64,000 nucleotides of DNA from Auanema rhodensis (lineage: Eukaryota > Animalia > Nematoda): assembly GCA_964057225.1 (NCBI GenBank), contig OZ059895.1, forward strand, positions 17,360,001-17,424,000, written 5' to 3'. The position numbers were made by a program, and so were the translations under genes. The notes beneath the pieces were generated by a model. That model saw nothing but the letters and a program-made list of their open reading frames with translations. It did no database searches and was not told the origin of the DNA. Below are positions 9,517 to 35,620 of the stretch, in pieces (position 1 is the stretch's first letter; the number at the start of each line of letters is the position of its first letter).

Positions 9517-9853
9517 CGTTCCGTTATGCTCTCACGTCGATCCTATAGACCAATAAAGCCTACAAGATGAGTGTGATAGTATTCCAGATGTAGCGGTAGA
9601 TAAAGAGCATAATGGATAAACATAAGACTCGAGAAAGAAAGGTTTATTATGTCTACATGATTACAATAAGTTATATAAGTCTACATAAGGATATAAAGTG
9701 AAAGAGAGCTAAGAAAGGAAGACCAACCATCCATAGTCATTCCATAAGGCAAAGCTGAAGTCTGTGTTCCATATGAAGGGCGTGTCGTCCTCTCTCAGCC
9801 TCATGTCGTCTGATTCTAACCCGCCTGCTACGTATTGATTTCCGAATGGAACG
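9517..9853 (-). repeat. E1 3' LTR (337 bp)
   Basis: Direct repeat of 20644-20980; element-sense ends CGTTCCATT...AACGGAACG; contains AATAAA. Confidence 0.96.
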
Positions 9854-9865
9854 TGCCATTTTTTC
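9854..9865 (-). other. E1 polypurine tract (GAAAAAATGGCA)
   Basis: Purine-rich run abutting the 3' LTR; positionally equivalent to GAAAAAGGGCA in E2. Confidence 0.7.
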
Positions 9866-10549
9866 GAGTTTATGTCGCGTCCTCGCGAATAGCAAAATAT
9901 GTGGCTTATTCCAATCGTAGCAGAAGGTTTAGTTTTAAAAAATAAAAATTACAATGTTAACATAAAAATAGTAAAGATAAATTACAATATAATGTTAAAC
10001 AATATTATCTGAAAAGAATTTAATAAAAATTATTTGAAAATACATGAATATTAAGGAATAAAACAATCTTTTTGAATACCAGGGCTATATTTTGTCAGCG
10101 AGAGTGCGCAAAATAGCTTTTTAGGCACGACGCTGCATGTCTAACTTGTTTGAGTATAGAGAAACGAGAGTCATGCTATATTATCGATGGAGCTAGCATG
10201 TTTCTTCAGCGTATTCAAAGCGAATTGTAATAATAAAAAAAATTAAACTAAATCCCATATAATTTCCGGAATTGAATCATTAACTACTTGATAAGGACTG
10301 TTGTTCAGATGAATATGCAATATAATGTCTCTTATCTTTCATTTCTTCTTTATTTACGGGAAATTATTTGAAATTGATGAAGTTTTATAATCATATATGC
10401 TTTGAAACTGAAATGCTTTTTGATTATTAGCTTACATCTCGTCTTACTCAAGTTTTTCAATGATATAATAATATGAATAGCTCTGGTTTTTTAAAAGAGA
10501 GTTGATACAAGGTTTTACAATAATTTTATCAATCTCGAAGTTATTTCTT

Positions 10550-13500: not shown

Positions 13501-16500
13501 GTAATTTATTTTCCCAATCCGCTTCAGGTGGTATATAGTCTGGATTGTGTTCGGTCGTAAAGATCTCGTATTGTGGCAGTACGCCTATTTTTGCTTTGTC
13601 AATAATGTTTCCGGGTGATAGATCTATAGGATGATCAGTGTTGTTTTTGAATGTCATGGTAATTGAATTGACGTCTCGAAATGCTGTTTCGTAGGTGGTA
13701 GATATCGTCTTTTCTTCATCGGGTTGTAGCATGGCGACTTCGTTGTGTGATATGGGTTCAGCTAACCTTACTGGTATTCTACAGGTCTGATGAGGAAAGA
13801 TACATTGTGGATTTAAATTTATCAAATTAATGACAAATGATGTTTTTCTGATATTCCCGTTATTTCCATTGGCTAACGGTACTACGCGGTTTCCGATTTC
13901 TAACGTTTGTTTGAATGGTCGAAGTTTCATACCGATATTTTGACGATCGAGTGTTTTCATAAAATCTAATCCAATCAATGCTGGTGATGGACAGTCTTCA
14001 TCTCTTGAAATGAAGAATGTATGATCTATTTCATATCCAGCGATTTCTACGGTTAAATCAATTGTTCCCAGAAATCGAAATTCTGATCCGTTTGCTGTCG
14101 TTGCAACTGATTTATCCTTTTTTACAAAATCATTCAAAGTTAAGTAATGTAATGTCGAGAGTCTGATATAACTAATCGATGATCCTGAATCCCAAAGAGT
14201 TAGGATTAGTCTATCGTTAACAGTCATCAATAGCAATGGTAGAGTTTGGTCTTTGCGATTGGAAACTGAACAAACTATGGGCATAGCTAGTGGAACTAAA
14301 GTGAGAAACGATGGATAGTACTGTTTCATTATATTCTTTGGTATTGGCTGATCAGGTTGACTTACTAGCTCTAATGTTTCTTCATATGTGGGAAGATCGT
14401 TGGTTTGATCTCGGAGTTCGATATGCATGACTTGCATGCCAATTGGTTTGAAGAAATATATTTTCGCAACGAAGGCTAGTACGATCAGTATAACTACAAT
14501 AATTGTAATTGCTCCGATAGTGATGAGTGTTCGTTCAATCGTTCCTGCTATTGTATCGACAAATGAATTCCATGTACTTTTGGTGAATTCATTGGCTTTG
14601 GAGATGTAATCACTACTTGTCTTCAATATGCTGAATGCTGATGATATTTTTGGATCATGATGAATTGTGTGAAGCACGTGATTTTGACGAATCGATGCTA
14701 AACTAGCACCATAAGCAATGGCTGTTGTCATTGAGTACACTCGAGATGATAAGTTGGTGTATAAGTGTGCTCCGGTGAATTTTAATGGCGTGATCTTTTC
14801 ATGATGAAGTCCGTCCCACATGGATATAAGACTGACGTCTACAGTACCATTAATTCCTTTCCATTCACCGTCTGTTGACCATACGTCTGTTGGTACGTGA
14901 TCACAGTTAATTTCTTTACCATGAGGTAATAGGTCTTTCGATCCTGGTGCGGCAAACAGTAATTGTCCTTCTTGTGTTAATACTGGGGTTTCGAGATAAC
15001 ATGTGCCATTCACAGTGTGATTGTGATATATAGTCTTTTGTAATACTACCGGGCAAACGTGTATATGTAATATCTCGCTGCCTACAAATCTTGCGGCTAT
15101 ATCTTCTCTTCCCAGTATTGTACGCATAGCTATTGTTGGTTCAATTTGTAAAATTGATCTCCATAATTCAAGATACCTATTTTGGATCTCACATATTGAT
15201 TCGTATGACTCTTTAAAATGTTTCTGCAGTTCTTCTTGAATCATAGTTGTAGCATATTGCAAATGATCTTGTGCAATTCTGCTTGTTATGTTTTGGCGAA
15301 ACTGTTGTTCAGAGTCAACTTTTGTGGCAATGTATTGAGCATTAGCCTGTACAGACTCTATATCGGTGGCTGTAGGCGTTGATGATGCTCTATGTTTACG
15401 AATCAAAGATATTGGTGTATATGTAGTTTCTTCCATTATTGGAATTTGTTGATCTTGATGAACAGCGTAGAGAATAGTCGTTGGCGGCGTGCGGGTCGAT
15501 ATTGTTGCGCGCGCGGTTGTCGTTGCGGTTGTATGGCGCGCCGTTGTTTCGGGCTGGCCCATCGATGAGGGCGCGCGCGCGGTAGTTGCTGCGGCTGCCC
15601 GAGGGCTTGTAGATGTTTGCGGCAGTATTGCGGGATCTGTTGTGATCGGCGCCTCACGATCGATTATAGGGAGGGTTGCCATCTCGGCCGCGCCGCCTGC
15701 CGCGTTGCTTGGTGCACGCGTCGTGGTTTGCAACGATTTAAGTTGGATTTTCTCTGTCATTAATCTTTTTAACTGTTCTGATGATATTCTACTAGATGTA
15801 TTAGGCAAAATATTATCGTTTAGTAGTGGTAAAAATATTTCCAATAATAAGTCCTTAGAGATGTTGTTGGGCTCTATGAGCTTGGGATGTGGTCCAATTG
15901 GTATTCCAAAATTATTCTTGATGTCATAGAACAATTTATCAGTATCAAGTACAAACATTCGTGAAGATGGAAGGTTTATAAATTTTATGTCATCAATATC
16001 AGCTGCTGTTTTATTTCTTCTAAGCGTAACGAGAGTTTTTAGCTCATGTACAAGGTCAATTGTATCTTTTATAAATTTGCTGTTTCTTTCTTCTTGATCA
16101 GTTAATAATTGTTTCCTTATTGGTGGCATTTTTACGAATGCTTTCAATATTTCTTGTCTTGATGGAACTGTTAATTTGTCTTCAATTATAACTGGTGTAT
16201 TGGCTAAATCAAGAGCAATAGTTTCAGCACGCTCTCGATAAGTGCCTTCTTTTGTACGAATTAACCGATCAAATTCAATAACGGTCAAACGATCTGATAT
16301 TTGTTGAAGAAGTTGCCTGGATGTTAAATAAGATATTCCAGCTTTAGTAGCTAAAGCTAATTCTCTTTGAGCAACATATTGTAAAATGGCTTCGTCTTTA
16401 TCACGGAAATCATATTGTTTGAGAAAATGTCTTAAAGATTTCTCATAAATTTGAATTTTAAAGAAAAATTCAAAATTTTCACGATGGGCTATTATCCATT

Positions 16501-19288
16501 CTTTCAAGGAATATGTAGGGTCTACCATACGTCTTCCTTTAATTAGAGGAATAATTTGTGTAATTCCTGGATTACTCATAAGTGGTCTTAAAAATGGATA
16601 TGGGCAAATTCGAAGCGTGTACGTTTCAAAATCTTCAACATCATTTATTCTATCCTGATCGAATGGGAATGAGCATTTTGTAGAAGTTGCGCGTTTAGGT
16701 CTTTTGAACGGCAATTTCTTAAATTCTCGTTCAATTAGGAGTGTGATATTGTTATCATTAGGATATTTGGGGAATGTTATATAATTTCCTGATGTTGTAT
16801 GGAATGCTGGTTGTCTAAAGCAGGATGCAATTGGTTTTGGTGTTATTTTACTCGAAAGGATAAGCGCTGATTGTGTACTTGGAATCAAAATAGTTTCTTT
16901 GCTTATTATAGCATCGTAGTAATGCATATCGATATAATTACAACGGGAATCCGATGTTTGGGGATCCCATATAATTATTGATGTATTTGATTTGCAATTA
17001 CCATGATGAGAACTACAACCTTCAGTGTTTAGTATTAAATTGGATAATATTGTATCATCGGGCATGCGGGTCATGACTCCGCGCTCTAGTACTAAACGCG
17101 GCCGCTCCTCGCACTCGTCGCGGCTAAACGCGCGCGCCGGATCATAGGAGGGCTCTGGGGTTGCTTGTGCTATACTATCGATTCTCTCCAGCTCCATGTT
17201 ATTCCATTTGCGATCGCGAATCGCCTGCCTGCACTCGTGCGCCGCTATAGGCTGCACCCTATCGATTGTTCTGTTTGTGTCGCGGAGGAATAACAAATCG
17301 CGTACACACAGCTTGTGTACTTCCTTCGAGCAGCGCCACGCGTCCCACTCGTGAGCCGTGTGGTTTCGCGTGTATAGATGGATTTGTGTACGTAGCACAT
17401 GATTTGTTTCTGTTAATTTACATTTCTTTACTACTGGTGGAACTAATAAGGCTCCTCCAGTTGCTTTTGTGCAAATTTGATATGAAGTTACACATGGCAG
17501 GAAAATTGCTACTGTGATTGCCATTACAACCGTTAGTGATAACGGTGAAAGGGTCACAGAGTTAATTCGTGGTGTGCTTCTATCTCGTCCTCTTGATTGA
17601 TCTCTTTGATTGTTAAAATGGACTCTTCTTTGTCCGTTATGTTCATTAGTCCTTCCTCTTCTACTATTGTTTGAAGGATTAAAATTGTTTGAATGCCAGT
17701 TGTTATTAAATCGTCCCGAATTTCGTTCATAATTATTGTTACGGCGATAATTAGCAAAAGAGCCGTTACGATTTTGGTTGTTATTATATTTTGAAAAGTT
17801 TTTATTTTTCTGATAATTTTGATAATTATGATAATTTTTATTGTTTTGGTTATCACGTGGATAATTACGGTCGAAATTTCGGTTATCTCGTCTCTCGTTT
17901 GTGCGCGCGAAAGGAGCTAGTGCTTTGTTTACAGCATTGACTAGCATGGACTGCGTGTCTGTTGTCTGGTTCATTATCGATTCTTCCCAGCGAGCGGCCT
18001 CAATCGCATCCGTGAAGGATTTTGGCTTCGCTCGAATCACAGCTGGTTTCAGAGTATTTTTCAATCCTCTGAGGAAAGTTGATCTTAATATGTGATCTTT
18101 GTGAGGGTCATCCGTGGCAAAAGCGCTTAGTGCAATCGTTCTCAGTGATTGAGCGTAAGCGTCAATTGTCAGATCCCCTTGGGTTGTATTTTGGAGATTG
18201 ATCAGCGCGGGGTCCTGATTATATTCAGGACACAGCTTAGATGTTAAAGCTCTTAACAGGTCATTCCATGAACCGGTGGTTTTTAATTGTTCAGGTACTT
18301 GTCTGTACGCTTCTTCCGCTGCTTCGTTTTTAAGAAGCAAAGGTAGAAGGGCTAATCTCTCCGGGATTACCAGACCTACAGCGTTGGCAAATAGGTTGAA
18401 TTTAGCCGTGAAATCTCGAAAGTTGCGACTGCCATCATAAGTTGGGCAGTAGGGTGATAACAAGGCTTGCGCTATGGTAGTTTTCCCTGCCCCAGGTAAA
18501 GAGGGTTCAGTTGCCATATTACTTGTACGGGCAGATGGCATTTTTATCACTCTGCCTGTTGTTAATGAGTTCTCAGACACAGGGGTTGTGTGTACTGAGC
18601 GGCTGGGTTGGTTTGGTGCTTTTGAACTTCCTGTTGTTGTATTTGGTAAAATTGGGGTTGAAGTTTGGTTATCAGTAATAGCAAGATGTGTATGTTCGGG
18701 TGGTTGTATGGGAGATAAATTAATGTTTGGAACCGACGAGTATCTGTTTGTGTGGCTGGTGTTCAAGTTTCGATCTTTTGGTGAACGATTGAAGAGATCA
18801 GAAACTATGTTTTTAAAAGTTTGTAAACCGCCTGCACTAGTAGTGGCTACTGAAGGTGAAACTGTTGGTTCAAGGATGGACAGAGAGAGAGATGCGTCCG
18901 ATTTGCTTGAGTTTTTATTTTTATTTTTCTTATTTTTATTTGAATTAGAGGAGCGTACCTTTTTAGCAGTAACTGGTGTTTGTTCTTCCACTATGACGGA
19001 TGTTTCTTCTCCTCCTGGTGGTACGTAATCCTCGTCGCTTAATCGTTCAGTAGGTGAATAAGTGCCTGCACGAGGAGTAAAGAATTTGTCGGTTTTGTGC
19101 TCGGCTTTCTGCTCGTCTTCGATTATAGCGATGCTCTGTGCGCGAGCTCGGCTTCTGGTGAGTGGAGCTGAGTCTCGCAGATCAAAATCAGTTTGTGTAC
19201 TGAGAGGTACAGCTGATCGGAATCGCTTATCCACTTTGGTAGCGCTCTTGGTTTGGAAAAACCTTGAGTGTTTAGTAACGTGGGGGAT
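10550..19288 (-). CDS. E1 Gag-Env-Pol polyprotein (probable AUC start at 19288; ORF-track GTG at 19234; first AUGs at 18541 and 18517)
   Basis: Capsid-like Gag and N/R-rich region; signal peptide (VVMAITVAIFLPCVTS|YQIC, mature Env from 17482); gB-like ectodomain; TM ~14449-14527; protease LWDSGS (~14190); RT YLDD (12851-12862); RNase H ESDGS..E..TDH..DALSR; integrase HHCC, D-D-E and GPF. No stop codon or frameshift. The start position is inferred. Confidence 0.95.
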   Translation of the reverse strand: MPHVTKHSRFFQTKSATKVDKRFRSAVPLSTQTDFDLRDSAPLTRSRARAQSIAIIEDEQKAEHKTDKFFTPRAGTYSPTERLSDEDYVPPGGEETSVIVEEQTPVTAKKVRSSNSNKNKKNKNKNSSKSDASLSLSILEPTVSPSVATTSAGGLQTFKNIVSDLFNRSPKDRNLNTSHTNRYSSVPNINLSPIQPPEHTHLAITDNQTSTPILPNTTTGSSKAPNQPSRSVHTTPVSENSLTTGRVIKMPSARTSNMATEPSLPGAGKTTIAQALLSPYCPTYDGSRNFRDFTAKFNLFANAVGLVIPERLALLPLLLKNEAAEEAYRQVPEQLKTTGSWNDLLRALTSKLCPEYNQDPALINLQNTTQGDLTIDAYAQSLRTIALSAFATDDPHKDHILRSTFLRGLKNTLKPAVIRAKPKSFTDAIEAARWEESIMNQTTDTQSMLVNAVNKALAPFARTNERRDNRNFDRNYPRDNQNNKNYHNYQNYQKNKNFSKYNNNQNRNGSFANYRRNNNYERNSGRFNNNWHSNNFNPSNNSRRGRTNEHNGQRRVHFNNQRDQSRGRDRSTPRINSVTLSPLSLTVVMAITVAIFLPCVTSYQICTKATGGALLVPPVVKKCKLTETNHVLRTQIHLYTRNHTAHEWDAWRCSKEVHKLCVRDLLFLRDTNRTIDRVQPIAAHECRQAIRDRKWNNMELERIDSIAQATPEPSYDPARAFSRDECEERPRLVLERGVMTRMPDDTILSNLILNTEGCSSHHGNCKSNTSIIIWDPQTSDSRCNYIDMHYYDAIISKETILIPSTQSALILSSKITPKPIASCFRQPAFHTTSGNYITFPKYPNDNNITLLIEREFKKLPFKRPKRATSTKCSFPFDQDRINDVEDFETYTLRICPYPFLRPLMSNPGITQIIPLIKGRRMVDPTYSLKEWIIAHRENFEFFFKIQIYEKSLRHFLKQYDFRDKDEAILQYVAQRELALATKAGISYLTSRQLLQQISDRLTVIEFDRLIRTKEGTYRERAETIALDLANTPVIIEDKLTVPSRQEILKAFVKMPPIRKQLLTDQEERNSKFIKDTIDLVHELKTLVTLRRNKTAADIDDIKFINLPSSRMFVLDTDKLFYDIKNNFGIPIGPHPKLIEPNNISKDLLLEIFLPLLNDNILPNTSSRISSEQLKRLMTEKIQLKSLQTTTRAPSNAAGGAAEMATLPIIDREAPITTDPAILPQTSTSPRAAAATTARAPSSMGQPETTARHTTATTTARATISTRTPPTTILYAVHQDQQIPIMEETTYTPISLIRKHRASSTPTATDIESVQANAQYIATKVDSEQQFRQNITSRIAQDHLQYATTMIQEELQKHFKESYESICEIQNRYLELWRSILQIEPTIAMRTILGREDIAARFVGSEILHIHVCPVVLQKTIYHNHTVNGTCYLETPVLTQEGQLLFAAPGSKDLLPHGKEINCDHVPTDVWSTDGEWKGINGTVDVSLISMWDGLHHEKITPLKFTGAHLYTNLSSRVYSMTTAIAYGASLASIRQNHVLHTIHHDPKISSAFSILKTSSDYISKANEFTKSTWNSFVDTIAGTIERTLITIGAITIIVVILIVLAFVAKIYFFKPIGMQVMHIELRDQTNDLPTYEETLELVSQPDQPIPKNIMKQYYPSFLTLVPLAMPIVCSVSNRKDQTLPLLLMTVNDRLILTLWDSGSSISYIRLSTLHYLTLNDFVKKDKSVATTANGSEFRFLGTIDLTVEIAGYEIDHTFFISRDEDCPSPALIGLDFMKTLDRQNIGMKLRPFKQTLEIGNRVVPLANGNNGNIRKTSFVINLINLNPQCIFPHQTCRIPVRLAEPISHNEVAMLQPDEEKTISTTYETAFRDVNSITMTFKNNTDHPIDLSPGNIIDKAKIGVLPQYEIFTTEHNPDYIPPEADWENKLPHFPQDFMNDLDLKDADLTKEQKDLLQLCILRNRDAFLNEDKQIGLFKGPVEHSIPLRTDMDMPRPRITRIPIGKQEEVERQVQEMLKQNIIEPSTSLFNSPVVLVKKKDETFRFVTDFRALNNVTRKQTYIIPNISDIVDMAAGSQYFSNFDLVSGFFQIALKKSDRPLTAFTTNTGTYQYRRMPMGLCGAPHTFQTAVRYLQSRCKCRLFVYLDDLLVISDTAEQHLDDIAEILREVKKLGMKIKLKKCAFARPEVKFLGLIVGRDGVKPDPQKVSAIQDYPAPKSPTGVRAFLGMVGFFRKFIKDFAHIASPLYDLTKLDVEFQWNDKSQQAVDTLKRKLIQAPVLKPPRSDRMFIIESDGSNIAVGAVLLQPEDPNEPLKNLHPIAFASRKLVKAERNYAPIEIEALGLVYALAQFRTYILGSHTICITDHRPLTSLLTRRDLFGRLAKFQLVIQEYDIEIRYREGRLNKVCDALSRYIGDEANDPKPEKKKKTKEIPKAQINFVNVPDIRAIQEDTPWIKRTIAEIEYRAKKNMLSNDRYCVIDNMLYTKPSRKRPHPALILPRESELINKVIEEFHEDPAIGAHQGINKTKEAILRRFCWTNMQTDIAIFVKQCVKCAQRKKDPHAMTVQPMGQFEIPSKPFERIHMDIMGPFPTSKRNNNYVLTIQDSFSKWATTIAIPTIVTDVIIDRFLRNFVYIFGPPNRLITDRGSNFVSKKFEEMCEKLGSKHEPTLPHQKNSNGQVERLHRTLEEGLTHYLNEDVTDWDMYLPKITFALNTITHATTGISPYIALFGKESRMRLDKELFPETLQPEILEEIENTEYIRGERRTIIQENLAKHQETAKRKHDGRQRIEERDIRKGDQVMLAIKAHKPGQKLRKSYDGPFEVINVEGNMVQLKNQFGKIQDVHKDNLKLFERKMDHTIAQNTRSNTTTYDTDDDSDIEIIKVINGNDNYDSTEETEPEDPSDQNWLPPRRRR

Positions 19289-20630
19289 TTTGAGACGTTA
19301 ATGAGTGTTATGGATAAGGAGTTTTGGAAAAGGGGTGAGAAAGCTGTGAGTAACTGGTTTGTATAGTCGGCGTTAAGGAATGAATCTAAGTTGTGGCCTT
19401 TAACAGAGATCCGCCTACTACCGTATGAAAATTTGGACTTTGTTCGCTTTCCAATTTAATATTCTTAAATGTATATAATTCAACCAGTTTGTATATGTTC
19501 AAAAATGTTCAGTGCTCACTTGATTGATGCCTGAGCAATCTCATTAGTCCTTATTCCCATTTTTTTTTCTTTTTCTGACGATTCTGATCTTCTTGGACTC
19601 ACGAGTGATCGAAAATGCCACGAAAATGGACTTTGGTAAATGTTCAAAGGATTTTAGCGGTTTTCATAATGTACATTCGTAATAGCATTACTCTTTTAAG
19701 GAAGCAATTTGGAAAACGAATGAGTACCGTAGTCCCATCATGATCAGAAATCTAGTTTTAAAATTATGGCTAGGAATAGATGACTAAAGATTACAATAAC
19801 TATATTTAAAGAATTATGGTGTTTAGGAATGAGTCTTATGCTTCAAAACAACAATAACGGTATGAGGAAGGTGACATATAGTAAGGGGAGAAAATCCAAA
19901 CTGATATGCTTAAGCCAACACGACCTGATAGACAATCACTAATAATAATTCAGTTCGTAAAATTGTACAGGATTTTTCGGACTATAGCGATCTTAAAATT
20001 CACTTTTCATAATATTCCTCCCATTTAGGTGAGGTTTCCCGTGTAAATTCAATGCGTTATCAAAATATTTTTGGATGTTAATGGCAAAAAGTTGTCTGAA
20101 CAGAAATGTAACGCAAAATAAAATAGTCCTGATCGCAAAATATGAAATAATCTCAATTTGGTGCGCAAAATTGTTTCATCCACAAAAAACAAAGAAATAA
20201 CCGTGGCTATTCTTTCCTCGAAGCCAAAATCAATCCTTAAAAGGAGAAAGTGTGGGCATAAATCTCAATAAAAATTATCCTTGGGTGAATTTGTTCACTA
20301 ATTCATCCTAGGGTCCTCAAAAATGCTTCGAGTTCGGGTAACAGAGTATTTGATGTTAACAGCAAGGATATAAAAATTGTTGGGTTCAGACAGACAGAAA
20401 ATTGTGAACAAACGGGAAAATATAACTTCAGTTTCAAAAAATATAAAATCCATCTCCAAAAGGAGTGGTCCTTGCATCTGTTCCCTTTTAAACGTTGTTG
20501 GCCCCACCGTATTGTGTTAAGACATGGAGTAGATGGTTTAGAGATATAAGAGAATTCAGATTCAATGAATTGTATTAAAAATAACGAAATATAAGAGAAA
20601 ATAGTCAAGAAATCAAGATAAAATGTTCGA

Positions 20631-20643
20631 GGTGGAACCTCCA
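20631..20643 (-). other. E1 primer binding site, tRNA-Gln (TGGAGGTTCCACC)
   Basis: Abuts the 5' LTR; complementary to the conserved metazoan tRNA-Gln 3' end ...GGUGGAACCU-CCA. Confidence 0.88.
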
Positions 20644-20980
20644 CGTTCCGTTATGCTCTCACGTCGATCCTATAGACCAATAAAGCCTACAAGATGAGTG
20701 TGATAGTATTCCAGATGTAGCGGTAGATAAAGAGCATAATGGATAAACATAAGACTCGAGAAAGAAAGGTTTATTATGTCTACATGATTACAATAAGTTA
20801 TATAAGTCTACATAAGGATATAAAGTGAAAGAGAGCTAAGAAAGGAAGACCAACCATCCATAGTCATTCCATAAGGCAAAGCTGAAGTCTGTGTTCCATA
20901 TGAAGGGCGTGTCGTCCTCTCTCAGCCTCATGTCGTCTGATTCTAACCCGCCTGCTACGTATTGATTTCCGAATGGAACG
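20644..20980 (-). repeat. E1 5' LTR (337 bp)
   Basis: Direct repeat of 9517-9853, followed in element sense by the PBS. Confidence 0.96.
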
Positions 20981-23546: not shown

Positions 23547-23912
23547 CGTTCCATTCGGAGACTCTATATATGTAACTGCAGGGTTAGAGCCAGACCGACT
23601 AGAGGAATGAGGAATGGCACCGCCTTCCCTCATGCCCCTATTCGGGAGTTCGCCCCTTTGCAAGCCCATGGACGGTTTGCATCTAACTTAGTTAATCTTA
23701 TATATTAGTCTTTGTCTTGTAAATGTAGTTTACTTTATCCTTGTGTTAATGTATTGTAATGATATTGTATTGTGTATAATAAACCTATATATTTCCTTAT
23801 CTTATGTAATCCTTATGCTCTGTTTCCATACCGCTACACTTATGGAATACTATACGCGTAGTTGAGCAGACTACAATGGTCTGTTCAATATACGTAGGAG
23901 CATAATGGAACG
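23547..23912 (+). repeat. E2 5' LTR (366 bp)
   Basis: Perfect 9-bp terminal inverted repeat CGTTCCATT...AATGGAACG; AATAAA at ~23778; direct repeat of 35255-35620. Confidence 0.96.
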
Positions 23913-23925
23913 TGGAGGTTCCACC
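23913..23925 (+). other. E2 primer binding site, tRNA-Gln (TGGAGGTTCCACC)
   Basis: Identical to the E1 and E3 PBS; abuts the LTR. Confidence 0.88.
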
Positions 23926-24895: not shown

Positions 24896-25429
24896 TTAAA
24901 AGCCCCATTTAAAATGCAACTGTCTCACAAATTCTATAGGCTGTGAGATGGGCTCATCGCTAGGCTCTAAATACTGCGAATACACCGAATCCGCAGAGGT
25001 CCTTAGCAATAAGCCCATAGGAGACTGTTCATAAAATAAATAAATTTTAAACAAAATTTTAGACATATAATCATAAAAATCATGAGACTTATGCTCATAC
25101 CAATTCCAAGGGGATGCGACCAGATTTGGGTTTTCATACCAATGCGCGCACAAGTCGGTGAGGCACCATCGCCGGATAGCTGCAACCTCATCCGCTATTT
25201 CCTGCATTAGGGAGAAGTTTACTAATCCCCTTCCCAGATAATGCATCTTTAAATCCTCAATAAACTAAAAATTCTTATTAAGATAACATGTTTCTTTGTT
25301 TTAACCAACCATCTTAATTATGTCTGGGTGCGGCCTATAAGCTAACACTTCGTCTTGATCATACAAGACGAGGTCAGCGTACAGCTTCCTCAAGACAAAA
25401 GTCATTCCCGATAGACCTTCATAAGCCAT
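24896..25429 (-). CDS. Candidate two-exon antisense accessory gene in the E2 leader (~162 aa; exons 25429-25310 and 25264-24896)
   Basis: Two adjacent minus-strand ORFs join in frame (…DIIKM|FIEDLKMHYLG…) across a 45-nt GTTGGT…TTTTTAG intron. No homologue recognised. Confidence 0.55.
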
Positions 25430-25789
25430 TCTTTGATTTATTTTTTTTTTTTCAGCTCTACAAATATAAAGATTCTTATGCATAAAAAGGGGACATAAAA
25501 CGACTGAAAATCTCTCTCATACTTTCAAGAATTCAATTAGAGTAAAGTATTAAGATTGAGGCTAGAAAGAGCGAAGACCAAAAAAAATTTATAATTGATG
25601 AACATCTGTGAAATAGAATAAAGAAAAGAGAATACGGTAGATAGGCGGAGCCAGATCTCAGGCCAAGATTTTAAAACTCTTTCTCATCTAATAACGATTC
25701 TCGGCGAAAGACGCCACGTCTCAATCTTCAAACGTTTCTTACTTTTCCTATAACCGACCCGAATTTCTTGTCACTCATTCAACGTCAAC

Positions 25790-28700
25790 ATCCCCCATAT
25801 AACGAAACACTCGCGGTTTTTCCGAACCAAGAGTGATTCCAAAGTGGCACGAAGATACTCTTCGGCCGTCCCTGCTCTATACCCTTCTGAGTCCAGTGAC
25901 GACATCGCAGTCGCCAGTCGAACCAGAAGCCGCACTCGACTCCTCAGTGTTCAGATTGAAGAGCCTGAACAAGAGGTAAAACCCAAAGTCGAGAAAACCT
26001 TCATTCCTCGAGAAGGCACGTATTCACCTCCGGACAACACCGAGGAGGACCCTGATTTCTATATTCAGGACTACAATATTCAAACTTCAGCTTCAACTCC
26101 AAAGGTACACTCTTTTAAAAGTAATAAAAAGATTCAAAAAATTCAAAAACCAAAACAAATAACCTCTAATACTTCACCAGCCACTCCCCACCTAAACTTA
26201 TCAACTTTATCAGTTAATACTGATAACGATCTTGCATCTTCTTTTGAACTAACTCTAACACCGCAGGCATTTTCCACTCCGATAGAAAACTCACAACTTA
26301 ATAAAACCTCATCTCTCACTATTCGCAAATCACCCTTATCAGTTATCACTGATAAGCTTGATTCGAAAAAGCTTGATTCTAAAAAAATTAATAAAAGAAA
26401 AACTAATACACCGCGTAGGCGCTCAACCTCTAATAATCCCGTAGAACCAAATCAGGAAATTACCGAAGTTTTGCCCTTATCACTAACTACTGATAAGTTC
26501 AAAAGTAAGAAATCTTTAACAGCTCGCTTAATAAAAGTTTTGAATTTGTCTCCAGGGGAGGTAACAACAGAACAAGTTGATAACTCTCTTCACGTATCCT
26601 CCAACCCAACCCTTAATAAGTCAGATAGCGCTATACCCAGCTCAAGCGTATCAATACATTCGACGCCTCAGGCAACGAGTCGAATTATCAAACTCCCAGG
26701 GAAGCGGTTCTCCTCAGCCGCCCCTACCATTAGTTATCCAACATCTGGTAACTCGAAAAAGGGAGGTAAGAATTTAACGGCGAGAAGCTCAGGCAGTAAA
26801 GGGATTACGTCATCTCGCACATACCCTGAGGATATACCAACCATGACGGAGACACCACGTCTTCCGGGAGCTGGTAAATCTACCATTGCGCACGCATTAA
26901 GCTCACCTTATTGCCCCATATACGACGGAAGTCGTAACTTTAGAGATTTCGTGGCAAAGTTTAATACCTTTTCTAACGCCTTAGGCTTAGTGATGCCCGA
27001 AAGACTAACTATTTTACCATTACTATTGAAAAATGATAGAGCAGAGGAAGCTTATTTAGAGCTACCTGACAAGGTCAGAACTGCTGGACCTTGGGTTACC
27101 CTAATAGAAGAGTTAACATCCAAGCTGTGTCCCGAATACAATCAAGACCCTGCCCTTATCACACTTCAAAACAGCACTCAAGGCGATTTATCAATTGATG
27201 GTTTTGCACAAACGTTAAGAAACCTCAGCTTAAATGCTTTCTCTAATAGTGATACTCATAAAGATCACATTCTGAGGTCCACATTTTTGAGAGGCTTGAA
27301 AAATACGATACGCCCAGGGGTAATTCGAGCAAAACCCAAAACTTTTGCTGAGGCTGTTGATAGTGCTCGCTGGGAGGAATCAATTGCAAACCAAGTAGCA
27401 GACCCTCAGGCGCTATTGGTTAACGCAATTGAAAGAACTTTCCCCCCGCGCAGAAACAATGGTGGGAGAGGTATGGCAAGAGGTTATCAATCTTTTAATA
27501 ATAAAAATTATCAAAATTATAATAATTATAACAATTATCATCCAAACTTTCAAAACAATCAAAATTATCATAAATTTTCAAAAAATCAAAAAGGCTGGAA
27601 TTTCCAAAACCCATTTGCTAGGAACCGCAATTTTGGTGACCGCGGTCGAAATTATCAGAATCAAAATCAAAATGGGTATCAAAGAAGCCATAATGCATCA
27701 CAAAATCAAGAAATGAGCAATAATAGACAGAGAAATAACAGTACCTTTAGGGGAAATAACAACAATAGAGGCAGAGGTAGAGGCTCAAGAGTCAATAATT
27801 TGACTCTGATATCTCCTTTGACTTTAGCCGTAGCTTTATCAGTAATCTTATCACTGGTTACAACAGCTGAAGCATACCAGCTATGTACTAAAGCTACTGG
27901 AGGAGCCCTTCTCCGTCCCCCATCTCTCCGAAAATGCTTATTACCACCAATAAAGCATATCTTACGAACAAAAGTTCATCTTTATACAAGGAATCAAACG
28001 GCACATGAATGGGATGCATGGAGATGCTCCAAAGAAATTCATAAAATGTGTATCAGAGACCTTTTGTTCCTTAGAGATACCAATACAACGATAGCGAGAA
28101 TTGAAAAGATACCAGCTGCAGAATGCAGACTGGCAGTGAGAGATAGAAGATGGAATTGGAGTGAATTAAAGAAGATCGACAGCATAACATATGCAACTGA
28201 CGAGCCTTCCTTCTCGCCAGGCCGATCTTTTAATAATGAACTATGTGAAGAGAAAGCCAGATTGGTTATCGAAAGAGGGGTTATGACACGGATGCCAGAT
28301 GAAACTATAATCTCCAATTTAATACTAAATACTGAAGGATGCTTAGCGCATCATGGAGAATGTGCATCAGATACCTCAATCATCATATGGGAGAAACAGC
28401 CTTATGAATATCGATGCAACTATATCGACATGAGTGAATATGATGTGATAATTGGAGACGGCATTATTCTGTTACCAACCACTCAATCAGCCCTTGTAAT
28501 CGATCAAAAAGAGATACCGAAGCAAATATCTTCTTGTTTTAAACAGCCAATCTTCCACACCACAACTGGCAATTACATTCTCTTACCACAGTACCCAAAT
28601 GACACCAATATCCATGTTTTAATAGAGAGAGAATATAAGAAACTTCCGGCGAAAAGAGATAAAAGAGCAATTGCGGAATGCACGGTTGAATTAAACAAGG

Positions 28701-31700
28701 AGTGGATACAAAAACAGGAAGATTTTGAAACTTTAATATTAAATATTTGTCCTTATCCTTTCTTACGACCGGTGATGAGTAATCCTGGTATTTATCAGAT
28801 AATACCGCTTATAAAGGCCAGACGAGCTGTCAACCCTTCATATTCAATTATTGACTGGGTTTCAGCACATCCCGAGAAGTTTTATTTCTTCTTAAGAAGT
28901 CCCGTATCTGATAAATCCATACAACGTTTCCTTCAAACATACGAAATACACGACCCTGAGGAAGCAATACTTTATTTTCTTGCGCAAAAGGAACTGGCAG
29001 CAACCACTCGCGGCGCTATACGGTATTTAACCTCACAACAATTATTAGAACAGATAGGTGACAGATTAACAGCACACGAATTTGACGAAAAACTGCTAGA
29101 AAAAGACGGATCCTACCGTGAAAGAGCCGAAAGCATAGCGATGGAGTTAGCTTATACACCGGTAATATTTGAAAACAATCTGTCGGTACCATCAAGGCAA
29201 GAGGTTTTAAAATCCTTTGTGAACATGCCGCCGATCCGACCAACTCTAACAACTGACAATGCTGATGAGCGTATAGTACTTAGAAACACTCTTTACTTAT
29301 ACCATAACTTGATGACATTGCGAGTAATAAGGCCAAATAAAACAGCAGCAGCCGTAGATGATGAAAAGTTCCGACAATTAACAATCAATGTGCCAGATAC
29401 CAACAAATTATATCGAGATAAAGATTCTAACTACGGTATATCGATAGGGCCCCACCCTCGCATTCAAAACCCAAGCGCAGATACACGCCAGCTACTTATA
29501 AAAACATTTTTACCACTGTTAGAGGATATTGAAACACCGCCTTATCTGACTAGAAGACTGTCATTAACGACAACAACGGACAAACCCGCTTCACTAGTTC
29601 AGGAGACAACTAAAAGCCATACGACTCGGATTCCGACGACAACCACAGTTGAGACGACAACAGCCGCGATAACTACGACTCTCTCGCCAACAACATTAGC
29701 AACAGTCACTGACACGGCGTCACGAATCTTAAGGAAACAAAGAACATCATCTCCACCCGTAGAAACCAGAGAAATTCAGGCTCAGGCAACGTATACAGCG
29801 TCAAAAGTGAACAACGAAATACAATTCAACCTCAACGTATCTCGCAGAATAGCTCAAGATCATCTACAATATACAACAACACTCATACAAGAAGAGCTAC
29901 AGAAACATTTCATGGAATCTTATGAATCCATATGTGAGATTCAAAATAGATACCTCGAGCTATGGCGTTCTATTTTACACATAGAACCTACAATAGCAAT
30001 GAGGACTATTTTAGGAAGAGAGGATATTGCAGCCCGTTTCGTAGGCAGCGATATAGTTCATGTTCATATATGCCTACCTCTTCAACCTAAAGCTGTTTAT
30101 CATAATCATAAGATCAATGATACATGCTATTTGGAAACACCAGTAATAACAGAAGATGAGAGATTATATTTTGCTGCTCCAGGATCAAGAGACTTATTAA
30201 CACATGGAAAAGAGATAGATTGCGAACATGTACCCACAGATGTATACTATCAAAATGGAGAATGGATAAATATAAATGGATCGGTTGAAGTAAAACCAAT
30301 ATCACTCTTTGATAAAGCGCAATACCACCAATTAACACCTTTAAAGTTCACAGGCGCTAACTTATACACCAATTTATCATTGAGAGTTTACTCAATGTCA
30401 ACAGCTATTGCATATGGAGCAAGTTTAGCATCCATACGACAGAACCATGTTTTACATACTATTCACAACGATCCAAAAATTACGTCCGCCTTTAATCTTT
30501 TGAAAAAGGGCAGTGACTATATCTCTAAAGCAGCTGAGTTCACAACTTCCGCCTGGACTAGCGTAAAGCAATTTCTAATAGGATCAATTGAGAGAACACT
30601 CATCTTCATAGGATCAATGGTTACGATTGCCGCAGTATTAATAATTCTTTTCGTTGTTGCTAAATTTTGGTTCTTCAGAGCCACTCCACTAACCGTAATG
30701 CATGTCCACGAAATAGATAATGAGCCCCCAAGCTATGAAGAAACATTGGAACTTGTAAGCCGCCCAGACCAACAGATGCCAGATAACATCATGAAGCAAT
30801 ACTATCCTGCTTTAGTAACATTTATTCCAATCGCAATACCATTTGTTGCTTCTATTGTATCAGCGGAAACAAAGTTACCATTAATATATATATCAGTTGA
30901 AGATAAACTGATTTTAGCTTTATGGGATTCAGGCTCATCAGTGTCATATGTTAGGCTCTCCACCCTCAAATATCTGAACATGGCCGAAAATGTCAAGAAG
31001 AGACATTTAGTAGCGATGGCAGCCAACAAGTCCACTTTCACATTTTATGGAAAGATAAATCTTGTAATTGAAATTGCCGGTTACGAGATCGAACACACCT
31101 TTTTGGTCTCAAACGATCATGACTGTCCTGCTCCCGCTTTAATTGGACTAGATTTCATGAAAGCGCTTGACAGCGAAAACATCGACGTCAGCCTTAAACC
31201 ATCCAAGAAGAGGTTGGAGATTGGAAACAATGCCATCCCATTAATAGGAAACGAATCTATTAAGCATACGGAGATAACTGTGAATATCATTAATTTAAGA
31301 ACAAAAACATTAAAGCCTGATGAAGAGGCACCTATCCCAATAAAGACAGATAAACCACTAGAATCTAACGAAGTGGTTGTCTTAGGGGATAGTGGAAGCG
31401 CATTAAAATCATTATATCCAACTGCGTTTCGTGATACCAGTGGAGTATATGTTATGTTCCGTAACAATACCGATGAAACAATAGCTATGGAAGCTAATTC
31501 AGTCATCGGACAGGCAATAATTGGAGAAATTCCGGCTTGTGAACCCTTTAAGCATAAGCCAATTCTACCATATGTTCCGCCAGAGGCCGATTGGGAGAGT
31601 AAACTACCATATTTTCCAAGAGACTTCATAAAAGATCTTGATCTAGAGAATGCTGATCTCACGAAAGAAGAAAAACATGAGCTTACAAAAATAATTGAAA

Positions 31701-34549
31701 GCCATCGTGAGGCATTTCTTAACGAGGACAGGAAAATAGGCTTATTTAAAGGTCCTATAGAGCATACCATACCATTGAGAACAGATATGGATATGCCAAA
31801 GCCGAGAATAACACGTATTCCCTTAGGAAAACAGGAAGAAATTGAAAAACAAGTCAAAGAAATGCTTGAGCAAGGCATAATAGAGCCTTCTACATCTCTA
31901 TTTAATAGCCCTGTAGTACTAGTTAAGAAGAAAGATGACACGTATAGGTTTGTGACAGATTTTCGAGCTTTAAATAATGTCACACGCAAGCAAACTTATG
32001 TCATTCCAAGCATTTCTGACATAGTTGATTTGGCAGCAGGCGCCCAATTTTTCTCAAACTTCGATTTAGTGTCAGGATTTTTTCAAATATCCTTGAGAAA
32101 ATCAGATCGACCACTAACAGCATTTACGACCACATCCGGCACATACCAGTACAAACGGATGCCGATGGGCCTTTGTGGAGCCCCTCATACCTTTCAAACA
32201 GCAGTAAGGTATTTGCAAAGTAAATGTTCTTGTAAACTATTTGTTTATTTGGACGATCTATTAGTTATATCTGATACAAGAGAACAACATCTCAAAGATA
32301 TCGATGATTTACTGCAAGCAGTAGAAGAATTGGGAATGAAGATAAAGCTTAAGAAATGCGCTTTTGCTCAACCAGAAGTGAAATTTCTAGGACTTATTGT
32401 AGGACGTCAAGGTATAAAACCTGACCCTCAAAAAGTCGCCGCCATACAAGATTATCCGGCACCAAAGAATGCAACAGGTGTACGAGCATTCTTGGGAATG
32501 GTTGGATTCTTTCGCAAATTCATGAAAGATTTTGCACGTATCGCAAGCCCTTTATACGATCTGACAAAGGCAGATACTGAATTCAAATGGGAAAACAAAC
32601 ATCAAGAAGCTTTAGACCTCCTTAAAAGAAGTTTAATACAGGCACCCGTTTTAAGCCCACCTAAATCGGACCGCTTGTTTATAGTTGAAAGCGACGGTAG
32701 TAACATCGCCATAGGTGCTGTATTATTACAACCGGAAGATCCAAAACAACCTCTGAAAAATCTACACCCTATCGCATTTGCAAGCAGAAAACTAGTTAAA
32801 GCCGAACGTAACTACGCACCAATCGAGATAGAAGCATTAGGCCTTGTATATGCATTAAATCAATTCCGTACATACATTCTTGGAACTCATACTATATGTA
32901 TTACGGACCATCGACCTCTTACCAGCTTAATGACACGCAGAGACTTATTTGGTCGTCTTGCGAAGTTCCAGCTGGTCATCCAAGAATATGATATTGAAAT
33001 AAAATATCGCGCAGGCCAATTAAATAAAGTATGCGATGCTCTATCTCGATATATAGGTGAAGAAGCTAACGATGCTAAGCCGGAAACAAAGAAGAAGAAA
33101 ATGGAAGAAATTCACATTAACGCCATAAATACACCAACAATAAAGGAAATTCAACTAAGCACCCCTTGGATTAAACGGACGATAGCGGAGATTGAATATA
33201 GAGCACAAAAGAACATGACAGCTAATGACAGATATTGTGTCATAAATGACTTGCTCTATACAAAACCAACAGACAAAAAGCCACAACCCGCTATCGTAAT
33301 ACCACAAGAACACCCCATAATTGAGGAAATAATCAAAGTTTTTCATGAGGATCCTACAATTGCAGCACATCAAGGAATTATTAAAACAAAAGAAGCAATT
33401 CTAAGAAGATTCTATTGGACAAATATGCAGAACGACATTACTATATTCATCAAGAACTGCATTAAATGTGCTCAAAGAAAAAAAGATCCACATTCCATGA
33501 CGGTACAACCAATAGGTCATTTTGAGATACCAAGCAAGCCATTTGAACGAGTCCACATGGACGTAATGGGACCATTTCCCCCTTCAAAAAGAAACTGTAC
33601 CTACGTCATTACCATGCAAGACGCATTTACAAAATGGTCAACAACAATTGCTGTACCACAAATAACAACGGAAATCACAATTGATCGATTTCTAAGACAT
33701 TTCGTTTACATTTTTGGACCACCCCATCGCTTGATCACCGATAGAGGTTCAAACTTTGTATCTAAAAAGTTCGAAGAAATGTGTACTAAACTTGGAATCA
33801 AACATGAACCAACACTACCACACCAAAAGAACTCAAATGGACAAGTGGAAAGACTTCACCGAACCCTCGAAGAAGGATTAACCCACTACTTAAAAGAGGA
33901 CCTTAGTGACTGGGATACTGTATTACCAAAAATCACTTTTGCTATTAACAATATTCAGCACGCGACTACAGGGATTGCGCCATACATTGCATTATTCGGT
34001 AAAGAATGCAGAATGTCAATGGACGCTGAATTACCAGAAACGATCACCAAAATTCAAGAAATTTCTGAAGAATTACTCCAAAGAAGACCAGATATGGACA
34101 AGAGAGACGAAATAATAAAGAACCGCATAGCTAAAAATCAAGAAAATGCGAAAAAGAAGAAAGATAGAACGCAAAGAGCACACCATAGAGACATTCAACC
34201 GGGCGACATGGTGATGACGACTATAAAATCACACCAAATCGGCCAAAAGCTTCGGAAAAGCTATGATGGACCATGCGAAGTCATCAACGTAGAAGGATCA
34301 AAAGTTCAAATCAGAAATTCATCAGGAAAACTACAAGATATCCACAAAGATAACTTGAAAATCTTCTCTCCTGCTTCACAAAACATCTCTTACAACACTC
34401 GCGCAAGGTTTCGAGAAAGTCAAGCAGAAGAAGATAGCGACATCGAAATAATAGAAGTGATCAACAGGAACAACAAGGATAGCATAGATACAGAGCCAGA
34501 AGATGAAAATGAAGACGAAATATGGCTTCCGAGGAATGAAGAAGAATAA
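25790..34549 (+). CDS. E2 Gag-Env-Pol polyprotein (probable AUC start at 25790; ORF-track GTG at 25844; first in-frame AUG at 26843)
   Basis: Gag; signal peptide (LAVALSVILSLVTTAEA|YQLC, mature Env from 27875); gB-like Env; TM ~30599-30676; PPSY at 30725; protease LWDSGS (30926); RT YLDD (32246-32257); RNase H; integrase HHCC (~33344-33469) and DDE. Single open frame. The start position is inferred. Confidence 0.95.
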   Translation: MPHITKHSRFFRTKSDSKVARRYSSAVPALYPSESSDDIAVASRTRSRTRLLSVQIEEPEQEVKPKVEKTFIPREGTYSPPDNTEEDPDFYIQDYNIQTSASTPKVHSFKSNKKIQKIQKPKQITSNTSPATPHLNLSTLSVNTDNDLASSFELTLTPQAFSTPIENSQLNKTSSLTIRKSPLSVITDKLDSKKLDSKKINKRKTNTPRRRSTSNNPVEPNQEITEVLPLSLTTDKFKSKKSLTARLIKVLNLSPGEVTTEQVDNSLHVSSNPTLNKSDSAIPSSSVSIHSTPQATSRIIKLPGKRFSSAAPTISYPTSGNSKKGGKNLTARSSGSKGITSSRTYPEDIPTMTETPRLPGAGKSTIAHALSSPYCPIYDGSRNFRDFVAKFNTFSNALGLVMPERLTILPLLLKNDRAEEAYLELPDKVRTAGPWVTLIEELTSKLCPEYNQDPALITLQNSTQGDLSIDGFAQTLRNLSLNAFSNSDTHKDHILRSTFLRGLKNTIRPGVIRAKPKTFAEAVDSARWEESIANQVADPQALLVNAIERTFPPRRNNGGRGMARGYQSFNNKNYQNYNNYNNYHPNFQNNQNYHKFSKNQKGWNFQNPFARNRNFGDRGRNYQNQNQNGYQRSHNASQNQEMSNNRQRNNSTFRGNNNNRGRGRGSRVNNLTLISPLTLAVALSVILSLVTTAEAYQLCTKATGGALLRPPSLRKCLLPPIKHILRTKVHLYTRNQTAHEWDAWRCSKEIHKMCIRDLLFLRDTNTTIARIEKIPAAECRLAVRDRRWNWSELKKIDSITYATDEPSFSPGRSFNNELCEEKARLVIERGVMTRMPDETIISNLILNTEGCLAHHGECASDTSIIIWEKQPYEYRCNYIDMSEYDVIIGDGIILLPTTQSALVIDQKEIPKQISSCFKQPIFHTTTGNYILLPQYPNDTNIHVLIEREYKKLPAKRDKRAIAECTVELNKEWIQKQEDFETLILNICPYPFLRPVMSNPGIYQIIPLIKARRAVNPSYSIIDWVSAHPEKFYFFLRSPVSDKSIQRFLQTYEIHDPEEAILYFLAQKELAATTRGAIRYLTSQQLLEQIGDRLTAHEFDEKLLEKDGSYRERAESIAMELAYTPVIFENNLSVPSRQEVLKSFVNMPPIRPTLTTDNADERIVLRNTLYLYHNLMTLRVIRPNKTAAAVDDEKFRQLTINVPDTNKLYRDKDSNYGISIGPHPRIQNPSADTRQLLIKTFLPLLEDIETPPYLTRRLSLTTTTDKPASLVQETTKSHTTRIPTTTTVETTTAAITTTLSPTTLATVTDTASRILRKQRTSSPPVETREIQAQATYTASKVNNEIQFNLNVSRRIAQDHLQYTTTLIQEELQKHFMESYESICEIQNRYLELWRSILHIEPTIAMRTILGREDIAARFVGSDIVHVHICLPLQPKAVYHNHKINDTCYLETPVITEDERLYFAAPGSRDLLTHGKEIDCEHVPTDVYYQNGEWININGSVEVKPISLFDKAQYHQLTPLKFTGANLYTNLSLRVYSMSTAIAYGASLASIRQNHVLHTIHNDPKITSAFNLLKKGSDYISKAAEFTTSAWTSVKQFLIGSIERTLIFIGSMVTIAAVLIILFVVAKFWFFRATPLTVMHVHEIDNEPPSYEETLELVSRPDQQMPDNIMKQYYPALVTFIPIAIPFVASIVSAETKLPLIYISVEDKLILALWDSGSSVSYVRLSTLKYLNMAENVKKRHLVAMAANKSTFTFYGKINLVIEIAGYEIEHTFLVSNDHDCPAPALIGLDFMKALDSENIDVSLKPSKKRLEIGNNAIPLIGNESIKHTEITVNIINLRTKTLKPDEEAPIPIKTDKPLESNEVVVLGDSGSALKSLYPTAFRDTSGVYVMFRNNTDETIAMEANSVIGQAIIGEIPACEPFKHKPILPYVPPEADWESKLPYFPRDFIKDLDLENADLTKEEKHELTKIIESHREAFLNEDRKIGLFKGPIEHTIPLRTDMDMPKPRITRIPLGKQEEIEKQVKEMLEQGIIEPSTSLFNSPVVLVKKKDDTYRFVTDFRALNNVTRKQTYVIPSISDIVDLAAGAQFFSNFDLVSGFFQISLRKSDRPLTAFTTTSGTYQYKRMPMGLCGAPHTFQTAVRYLQSKCSCKLFVYLDDLLVISDTREQHLKDIDDLLQAVEELGMKIKLKKCAFAQPEVKFLGLIVGRQGIKPDPQKVAAIQDYPAPKNATGVRAFLGMVGFFRKFMKDFARIASPLYDLTKADTEFKWENKHQEALDLLKRSLIQAPVLSPPKSDRLFIVESDGSNIAIGAVLLQPEDPKQPLKNLHPIAFASRKLVKAERNYAPIEIEALGLVYALNQFRTYILGTHTICITDHRPLTSLMTRRDLFGRLAKFQLVIQEYDIEIKYRAGQLNKVCDALSRYIGEEANDAKPETKKKKMEEIHINAINTPTIKEIQLSTPWIKRTIAEIEYRAQKNMTANDRYCVINDLLYTKPTDKKPQPAIVIPQEHPIIEEIIKVFHEDPTIAAHQGIIKTKEAILRRFYWTNMQNDITIFIKNCIKCAQRKKDPHSMTVQPIGHFEIPSKPFERVHMDVMGPFPPSKRNCTYVITMQDAFTKWSTTIAVPQITTEITIDRFLRHFVYIFGPPHRLITDRGSNFVSKKFEEMCTKLGIKHEPTLPHQKNSNGQVERLHRTLEEGLTHYLKEDLSDWDTVLPKITFAINNIQHATTGIAPYIALFGKECRMSMDAELPETITKIQEISEELLQRRPDMDKRDEIIKNRIAKNQENAKKKKDRTQRAHHRDIQPGDMVMTTIKSHQIGQKLRKSYDGPCEVINVEGSKVQIRNSSGKLQDIHKDNLKIFSPASQNISYNTRARFRESQAEEDSDIEIIEVINRNNKDSIDTEPEDENEDEIWLPRNEEE

Positions 34550-35254: not shown

Positions 35255-35620
35255 CGTTCCATTCGGAGACTCTATATATGTAACTGCAGGGTTAGAGCCA
35301 GACCGACTAGAGGAATGAGGAATGGCACCGCCTTCCCTCATGCCCCTATTCGGGAGTTCGCCCCTTTGCAAGCCCATGGACGGTTTGCATCTAACTTAGT
35401 TAATCTTATATATTAGTCTTTGTCTTGTAAATGTAGTTTACTTTATCCTTGTGTTAATGTATTGTAATGATATTGTATTGTGTATAATAAACCTATATAT
35501 TTCCTTATCTTATGTAATCCTTATGCTCTGTTTCCATACCGCTACACTTATGGAATACTATACGCGTAGTTGAGCAGACTACAATGGTCTGTTCAATATA
35601 CGTAGGAGCATAATGGAACG
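35255..35620 (+). repeat. E2 3' LTR (366 bp)
   Basis: Direct repeat of 23547-23912. Confidence 0.96.

Follow-up and report, generated by a model that had tools for sequence, protein, structure and literature searches.

Retroelements in which env lies between gag and pol have been described before. Chary and Hayashi (eLife 2026, PMC13524379) reported GAG-ENV-POL 'ancient errantiviruses' with an HSV/gB-type env in Nematoda, Bryozoa and Platyhelminthes; 'Nematoda' occurs 72 times in the table of that paper, twice per row in the rows examined, which corresponds to about 36 elements. In the available portions of its text, the entry mechanism of gB-type errantiviruses is called unknown, the word 'polyprotein' is absent and no processing model was found for the GAG-ENV-POL elements; nematode ERVs with flipped ENV and POL are credited to Sacco et al. 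2022. In planarians, the Burro / GYPSM1 elements (PMC6431247, 2019) carry env in frame between gag and pol within one polyprotein, called the first such case, and matches of Burro Env to mononegavirus fusion glycoproteins are reported. The Gag-Env-Pol layout of the two elements treated here, E1 and E2, is thus already published (2019, 2022, 2026), and the novelty that the original prediction had presumed for it falls away, given the in-frame env of PMC6431247 and the nematode GAG-ENV-POL elements of PMC13524379. What this study adds is a set of specific, likely protease sites next to both membrane segments, within a proposed processing model.

E1 and E2 lie in the window, which is the whole 64-kb stretch of Auanema rhodensis DNA that was analysed. 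Judged from their sequences, they are probably young Ty3/gypsy LTR insertions that belong to the published GAG-ENV-POL kind; each encodes a single Gag-Env-PR-RT-RH-IN chain, which is likely to cross the ER membrane twice. The ORF list of the window holds a frame without stops of 2931 aa in E2 (25754-34549, plus strand) and one of 2915 aa in E1 (10550-19297, minus strand); the third-longest frame has just 292 aa, far below these two. The uninterrupted Gag-Env-Pol ORF first proposed for both elements is therefore present, and the proposed domain order agrees with Pfam, which sets gB/Monjiviricetes-fusion matches between Gag and PR-RT-RH-IN in each. The nematode ERVs of Sacco et al. 2022 reportedly have a continuous gag-env-pro-pol ORF, a metavirus-like RT, a nyamivirus-glycoprotein-like env and sometimes a small extra ORF; E1 and E2 share the continuous ORF. 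The features of the window are as follows.

6528-6908: insert, likely of a third family, 381 bp, TG...CG ends, 4-bp duplication CTTC, unlike the E1/E2 LTRs
9517..20980, minus strand: E1, whole element; LTRs at 20644-20980 and 9517-9853, 337 bp, identical, CG...CG ends; primer-binding site as in E2; 4-bp target duplication
10550..19297, minus strand: Gag-Env-Pol frame of E1, 2915 aa
23547-35620, plus strand: E2, whole element
23547..23912, plus strand: 5' LTR of E2, 366 bp, CG...CG ends, flanked upstream by target duplication AGGC; sequence the same as that of the 3' LTR
23913..23924, plus strand: primer-binding site (PBS) of E2, tRNA-Gln type, abutting the LTR without a gap
24896..25483, minus strand: candidate spliced antisense ORF in the E2 leader, with a 45-nt GT..AG intron at 25265-25309
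25790..26842, plus strand: N-terminal extension of E2, aa 13-363, starting at ATC without a Met; 38% identity to E1, pN/pS 0.64
26843..27433, plus strand: Gag capsid of E2, aa 364-560, 69% identical to that of E1, which itself matches Retrotrans_gag / Ty3_capsid
27434..27790, plus strand: NC-like region of E2, Asn/Arg-rich, without a CCHC finger
27791..27877, plus strand: likely protease site of E2, aa 680-683 (predicted cleavage), then internal signal sequence, aa 684-708
27878..30583, plus strand: predicted gB-type class III fusogen ectodomain of E2, aa 709-1610; it includes a furin motif (aa 968-971), a helical insert of about 290 aa and a Ser/Thr-rich stretch
30584..30664, plus strand: transmembrane helix of E2, aa 1611-1637
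30665..30865, plus strand: predicted cytosolic tail of E2, with motifs resembling PPxY and YPxL and a hydrophobic stretch rich in proline
30866..34549, plus strand: Pol of E2, with PR (DSG, aa 1725), RT (YLDD, aa 2165), RNase H, integrase, acidic C-terminus and stop
35255..35620, plus strand: 3' LTR of E2, with a short purine run before and target duplication AGGC after
46956..48268, plus strand: E3, a copy of the E1 family with an internal deletion, consisting of the 5' LTR, a leader of about 725 nt and the last 250 nt of the 3' LTR; target duplication ACAT

In each of the two intact elements the LTRs are identical and the target duplication is 4 bp long, indicating that both are young. The errantiviruses of PMC13524379 have multiple nearly identical intact copies in one genome; in the window, the E1 family has a deleted second copy, E3, which is 97.7% identical to E1 over 1066 nt. 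The LTR ends are CG...CG (inverted CGTTCC / GGAACG) in E1, E2 and E3, that is, in three insertions of two families, and are fixed by the 4-bp duplications. LTR ends are usually TG...CA, a feature that is common, not strictly defining, for Ty3/gypsy. With such ends, the 3' end joined by the integrase would be CG; no paper on CG LTR termini was found in a literature search. The PBS 12-mer, of tRNA-Gln type, directly follows the LTR in E1 and E2 and equals the tRNA-Gln 12-mer of Clat_errantivirus_4 and Ctro_errantivirus_1 from Caenorhabditis (PMC13524379, supplement 1). By Pfam, Pol has gypsy-type domains in the order PR-RT-RH-IN, and its best solved relative is Ty3 Gag-Pol (E 4.6e-107), well ahead of caulimoviral and retroviral RTs. 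Paired LTRs, a PBS, a target duplication and the Pol order are thus Ty3/gypsy (Metaviridae) traits of E1 and E2, which lack TG...CA ends. An assignment to the Belpaoviridae with env (Atlas, Cer13, Tas) was rejected in view of env before PR, the YLDD motif, the lack of any BEL-type Pfam family and Ty3 as the best solved relative.

The host DNA around the elements is a 244-bp tandem array in which 122 tRNA-Thr(AGT) genes were called, making up about 60% of the window; in a 225-bp variant of the unit, 19 bp of the tRNA are missing. Four LTR-element insertions (at 6528, 9517, 23547 and 46956) lie within about 39 kb of tRNA array, and the insertion site of E2 is the 3' end of a tRNA copy that carries a deletion. 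The insert at 6528-6908 is likely a solo LTR of the third family. Precise targeting of tRNA genes in the manner of Ty3 was rejected, the four insertions being at different places of the 244-bp unit.

The proteins of E1 and E2 are 62% identical across 2800 aligned residues, with 69% identity in the capsid, 67% and 71% in the two Env halves, 85% in RT and 71% in the integrase. For the gB halves of Env, pN/pS between E1 and E2 is 0.24-0.28 (uncorrected, pS being near saturation), and at the level of this comparison purifying selection is shown to act on Env. Contigs from four public runs of one study contain the ORF of E2 with 0 letter differences and 0 indels where it is covered, and one of them (27735-27935) crosses the Gag-signal-Env junction; an assembly error is therefore unlikely. 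The view that the layout did not arise from a chance fusion is upheld by the pN/pS of Env and by the same order in relatives, and these observations, together with the contig agreement, led to the rejection of both chance fusion and assembly error as the origin of the frame.

The distribution of the layout was investigated with an Env profile search, which returned 327 representatives at E <= 0.001, 150 of them among the matches listed. Domain maps were drawn for 185 proteins (183 plus E1 and E2), and an Env match was present in 163. The full order CA-env-PR-RT-IN in one chain was found in 24 of the 185 (E1, E2 and 22 others, among the matches listed); the 163 Env-bearing proteins also include 65 more partial or variant chains of env-before-pol order, 11 with env after the integrase and 63 with env alone. 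These relatives are partly gene models that may contain predicted joins, and two, P0011 and P0014, visibly fuse unrelated parts. The nearest named relatives of E1 and E2 are from Auanema and Caenorhabditis. A quick, midpoint-rooted RT tree of 55 rows, built on a set with neither env-after-IN RTs nor the sequences of PMC13524379 itself, groups the RTs of E1 and E2 with nematode env-before-pol RTs, Caenorhabditis proteins among them. The group has 12 members (SH-aLRT 100), eight of which are named Caenorhabditis proteins, and the label for env position needs five changes on this tree, which is compatible with one origin of the layout as well as with several. P0064, one CA-env-PR-RT chain, falls in an enclosing group of 24 with a support of only 89; by eye, it matches the Env of Cbre_errantivirus_2 over about 100 residues (PMC13524379).

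The middle region of the chain is a class III fusogen as judged by Pfam, PDB profile and predicted fold, in agreement with the fusogen similarity that had been anticipated. The Pfam matches, Glycoprotein_B / Monjiviricetes_fusion, have E values of 5.7e-15 and 6.3e-13 and lie upstream of PR in both elements. A three-sequence Env profile gave 40 matches in the PDB at E <= 1, the best at E 3e-4, and every one of them was to gB of a herpesvirus or to a homologue of it. An AF2 monomer model of Env, made from a 41-row alignment (pLDDT 68, pTM 0.39), matched gB in Foldseek at E 8e-13, yet with a whole-chain TM-score of only about 0.18-0.26; its N-terminal domains aligned with HCMV gB (7yrn) in VIA-align at Z 11.2 and an rmsd of 4.8 A over 218 residues. 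The best BFVD matches of the model are rhabdo-like, nyamivirus and herpesvirus glycoproteins. The gB-type errantiviruses of PMC13524379 have a five-domain trimeric gB fold and a cysteine-bridge class, C1 or C2; the fold was checked with this monomer (pTM 0.39), in which the N-terminal domains match gB and the whole-chain arrangement does not. In the model, therefore, the domains of Env are gB-like and their whole-chain arrangement is unreliable.

The ectodomain measures 902 aa in E2 and 978 aa in E1, with 10 and 12 sequons, matching the N-glycosylatable ectodomain of about 900-1000 aa first described. The description 'Cys-rich' was overstated, since the 16 Cys make up 1.6-1.8% of the ectodomain against 1.3-1.4% in Pol; the spacing of all 16 is kept between E1 and E2. 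Fifteen of the 24 full-length chains, E1 and E2 among them, carry a furin motif between the two gB halves. The gap between the halves is 425-501 aa in E1 and E2 versus 35-385 aa in 22 relatives, which gives the former a longer ectodomain. Behind the furin motif, at 28667-29533, is a predicted helical insert of about 290 aa, common to E1 and the Auanema protein and absent from the Caenorhabditis relatives; it has a phmmer match in only nine of the 185 proteins and a pLDDT of 38 when modelled alone. As a guess, this insert could be an attachment module.

A Gag match was scored by Pfam in E1 (Retrotrans_gag, E 1.6e-05), and the assignment is extended to E2 because its capsid is 69% identical to that of E1; a sequence search with the capsid found no solved relative. 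At the NC position of E2 (27434-27790), the sequence is of low complexity, rich in Asn, Gln and Arg, and lacks a zinc knuckle; a CCHC motif is found there in six of 24 full-length relatives. The start of the chain had been placed at 25790, where the codon is ATC, not ATG. E2 has its first Met at aa 364 and E1 at aa 253, so that 250-350 aa come before it; Met 364 of E2, at the start of the capsid, aligns with Met 261 of E1. ATC begins the conserved coding N-terminus in both elements (25790, plus strand, in E2; 19288, minus strand, in E1). About two-thirds of the first 30 codons from 25790 are identical between the two, a stop lies four codons upstream in E1, and sequence comparison found no AUG and no common AG upstream of the conserved N-terminus. 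The simplest reading of these features is that translation of the full chain begins at AUC, and the Met before the capsid could initiate a shorter form.

Membrane topology was called by Kyte-Doolittle hydropathy scans. A signal-like segment lies at aa 684-708 of E2, ending A-E-A, and at aa 582-607 of E1, ending V-T-S; the ectodomain is followed by a single TM helix (KD19 2.95 and 3.18 in the two elements). Four basic residues stand ahead of the signal segment in both E1 and E2, as expected for N-in / C-out insertion. Among the 24 full-length CA-env-PR-RT-IN proteins (E1 and E2 included), the signal-like segment is present in 22, the TM helix in 23 and an extra TM segment in the ectodomain in none. 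With two membrane crossings, Pol would therefore be returned to the cytosol. The original prediction of a signal with an A-x-A / V-x-S cleavage site and of a TM helix, together flanking the middle region, is matched by these scans; the threading through the ER that it proposed is supported by the hydropathy of E1 and E2 and by conservation in relatives.

Possible sites for the processing of such a chain were found at the domain borders. In both E1 and E2, the motif [VI]-N-x-[VIL] occurs at the CA/NC, NC/signal, PR/RT and RH/IN borders. Per 1000 aa of the 24 chains it occurs 11.9 times upstream of the signal, 8.1 times in the tail and 0.58 times in the ectodomain, with none in RT, which corresponds to an enrichment over the ectodomain of about 20-fold before the signal and about 14-fold in the tail; each of these two positions carries it in 11 of the 24. 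The motif was picked after inspection of E1, E2 and 13 relatives; in the 13 full-length proteins unseen at that choice, it occurs before the signal in five and in the tail in four, one being a near-copy of a seen protein. The tails of E1 and E2 have looser variants only and no strict [VI]-N-x-[VIL]. The distribution suggests that the motif is likely the cut site of the element's own protease. Motifs like PPxY, PTAP or YPxL occur in 13 of 65 tails, compared with 3.3 expected from shuffles, the rows not being independent; they are found in E1, E2 and the Auanema protein and are missing from most Caenorhabditis relatives.

These features can be combined in a processing model. Gag would be made in the cytosol, and the internal signal sequence, with basic residues ahead of it, would direct the ectodomain into the lumen. 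Host signal peptidase may then release the N-terminus of Env, the signal segment keeping Gag anchored, and the TM helix would stop transfer, leaving the tail and Pol on the cytosolic side, tethered to Env. Furin may cut Env at R-x-K-R along the secretory route, and the element's own protease may cut [VI]-N-x-[VIL]-like sites in the tail, ahead of the signal segment and at the CA/NC, PR/RT and RH/IN borders. Because likely sites adjoin both membrane segments, we infer that the signal segment would at first anchor Gag and the TM helix of Env would anchor Pol, and that the protease would free both. The idea that Gag stays cytosolic is refined accordingly: once signal peptidase has cut, Gag would remain bound to the membrane through the signal segment, pending a protease cut immediately ahead of that segment. 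Capsid, envelope and enzymes would begin in equal numbers at a shared membrane, an arrangement that would favour an enveloped particle moving between cells; Pol packaging may also be coupled to the envelope, as first suggested.

One genomic frame could also serve several messages, in which case spliced or subgenomic RNAs would be the main source of Gag-Pol and of Env, and the full chain would be rare. Splicing has a precedent in Cer1 of C. elegans (PMC10309623), and Gag equal to Pol in number would be wasteful for a capsid. The transcript view available for E2 consists of shallow contigs from four runs of one study, the RNA nature of which is a guess, with the tail-PR junction outside their cover. 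In three of the four runs, the long contigs cover RT-IN and the 3' end, with little cover of env; a 3' bias would give the same picture, and depth and gaps cannot rank the parts. Splice forms that skip env had been proposed as a check, and no env-skipping joint occurs among these shallow contigs. No in-frame sense acceptor able to skip env is common to E1 and E2 (0 of nine TTnYAG acceptors of the E2 frame are shared), and the sole E2 TTnYAG acceptor between TM and RT sits within PR, out of phase. Comparison of the two ORFs found no slippery heptamer common to both. In addition, one Gag-Env-Pol frame is kept across 24 proteins, which is hard to explain without read-through. Expression through several messages is thus unlikely, and the single threaded chain is preferred.

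The E2 leader shows further features of its own. In contigs of three of the four runs (one study, RNA nature guessed), a 45-nt minus-strand GT..AG skip joins two minus-strand ORFs in frame to give about 160-180 aa. Searches with the antisense ORF gave no match in Pfam, no homologue in a set of proteins 67-214 aa long and only sub-0.8 Atlas matches, and no counterpart was found in the E1 leader; it is possibly an accessory gene, or the 45-nt skip is possibly a DNA deletion allele. One-base homopolymer differences occur at 25441 and 25580, in contigs of two runs and one run, respectively, both outside the main ORF. Two non-coding blocks of the leader (24172-24228 and 24445-24536) are 73-79% alike between E1 and E2, the rest having diverged, and are possibly packaging or export signals.

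The chain may be threaded as proposed and Env still serve assembly inside the cell, as an anchor or a scaffold at the ER, and not cell-to-cell transfer. No fusion or particle has been reported for any gB-type errantivirus in the portions of PMC13524379 available, where the entry mechanism is given as unknown, and late-domain-like motifs are limited to 13 of 65 tails. Such a role is nevertheless improbable, since the gB halves equal capsid and integrase in their conservation (67-71% identity, pN/pS 0.24-0.28) and all 16 Cys and the furin motif are kept, which fits a working fusogen. Least probable is that the second, proline-rich hydrophobic stretch just ahead of PR is a third membrane segment that anchors PR monotopically or sends it into the lumen: the stretch reaches a KD19 of 2.2 in E2 and is kept in 11 of 15 aligned tails with small residues at its end, but it contains three prolines, scores 1.5 in E1, reaches 1.9 or more in only two of 65 tails, is absent in a sister group and ends where relatives align an INSV / VNAV motif, and a lumenal Pol could not reverse-transcribe.

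If the twice-threaded chain is correct, it would be a second route to an enveloped retroelement without a separate env message. A tentative extension, which we regard as possible though doubtful, is a flavivirus-like assembly, in which Gag and Pol both begin anchored in the ER-threaded chain, signal peptidase and the element's own protease cut on opposite faces at conserved sites, budding signals lie in the Env tail and not in Gag, and an AUC start gives the full chain and a downstream AUG a shorter form. If true, this would be a mode of particle assembly for a retroelement that was not found described in the portions of the literature compared. Two intact neighbours that are 62% identical give conserved predictions: cut sites on both membrane faces, an anchored Gag, budding motifs in the tail and a non-AUG start.

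In sum, E1 and E2 resemble the gB-type GAG-ENV-POL errantiviruses (PMC13524379) in gene order, in a gB-type env between signal peptide and TM helix and in a Ty3/gypsy Pol. Burro (PMC6431247), at 25-30 kb, has an ORF of about 4,900 aa with CCHC knuckles, BCL2, BIR, RING and other domains, whereas E1 and E2 measure 11.5-12 kb, encode about 2,900 aa and are without CCHC, BCL2, BIR and RING; membership of Burro was rejected for the want of giant size, a CCHC Gag and apoptosis/ubiquitin domains. Atlas virus of Ancylostoma ceylanicum (Belpaoviridae; PMC9094657) is likewise a nematode element with identical LTRs and one stop-free polyprotein that includes Env; it differs in its Gag-Pol-Env order, its class II phlebovirus-like Env and its BEL/Pao RT with YVDN, and this order spares its Pol the need to re-emerge after a TM helix, as that of E1 and E2 would have to. 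The structural polyproteins of flaviviruses and alphaviruses share with the proposed model a capsid followed by an internal signal, with signal peptidase acting in the lumen and the viral protease in the cytosol; they are not homologous to E1 and E2, which belong to reverse-transcribing elements with a predicted class III fusogen and an aspartic protease.
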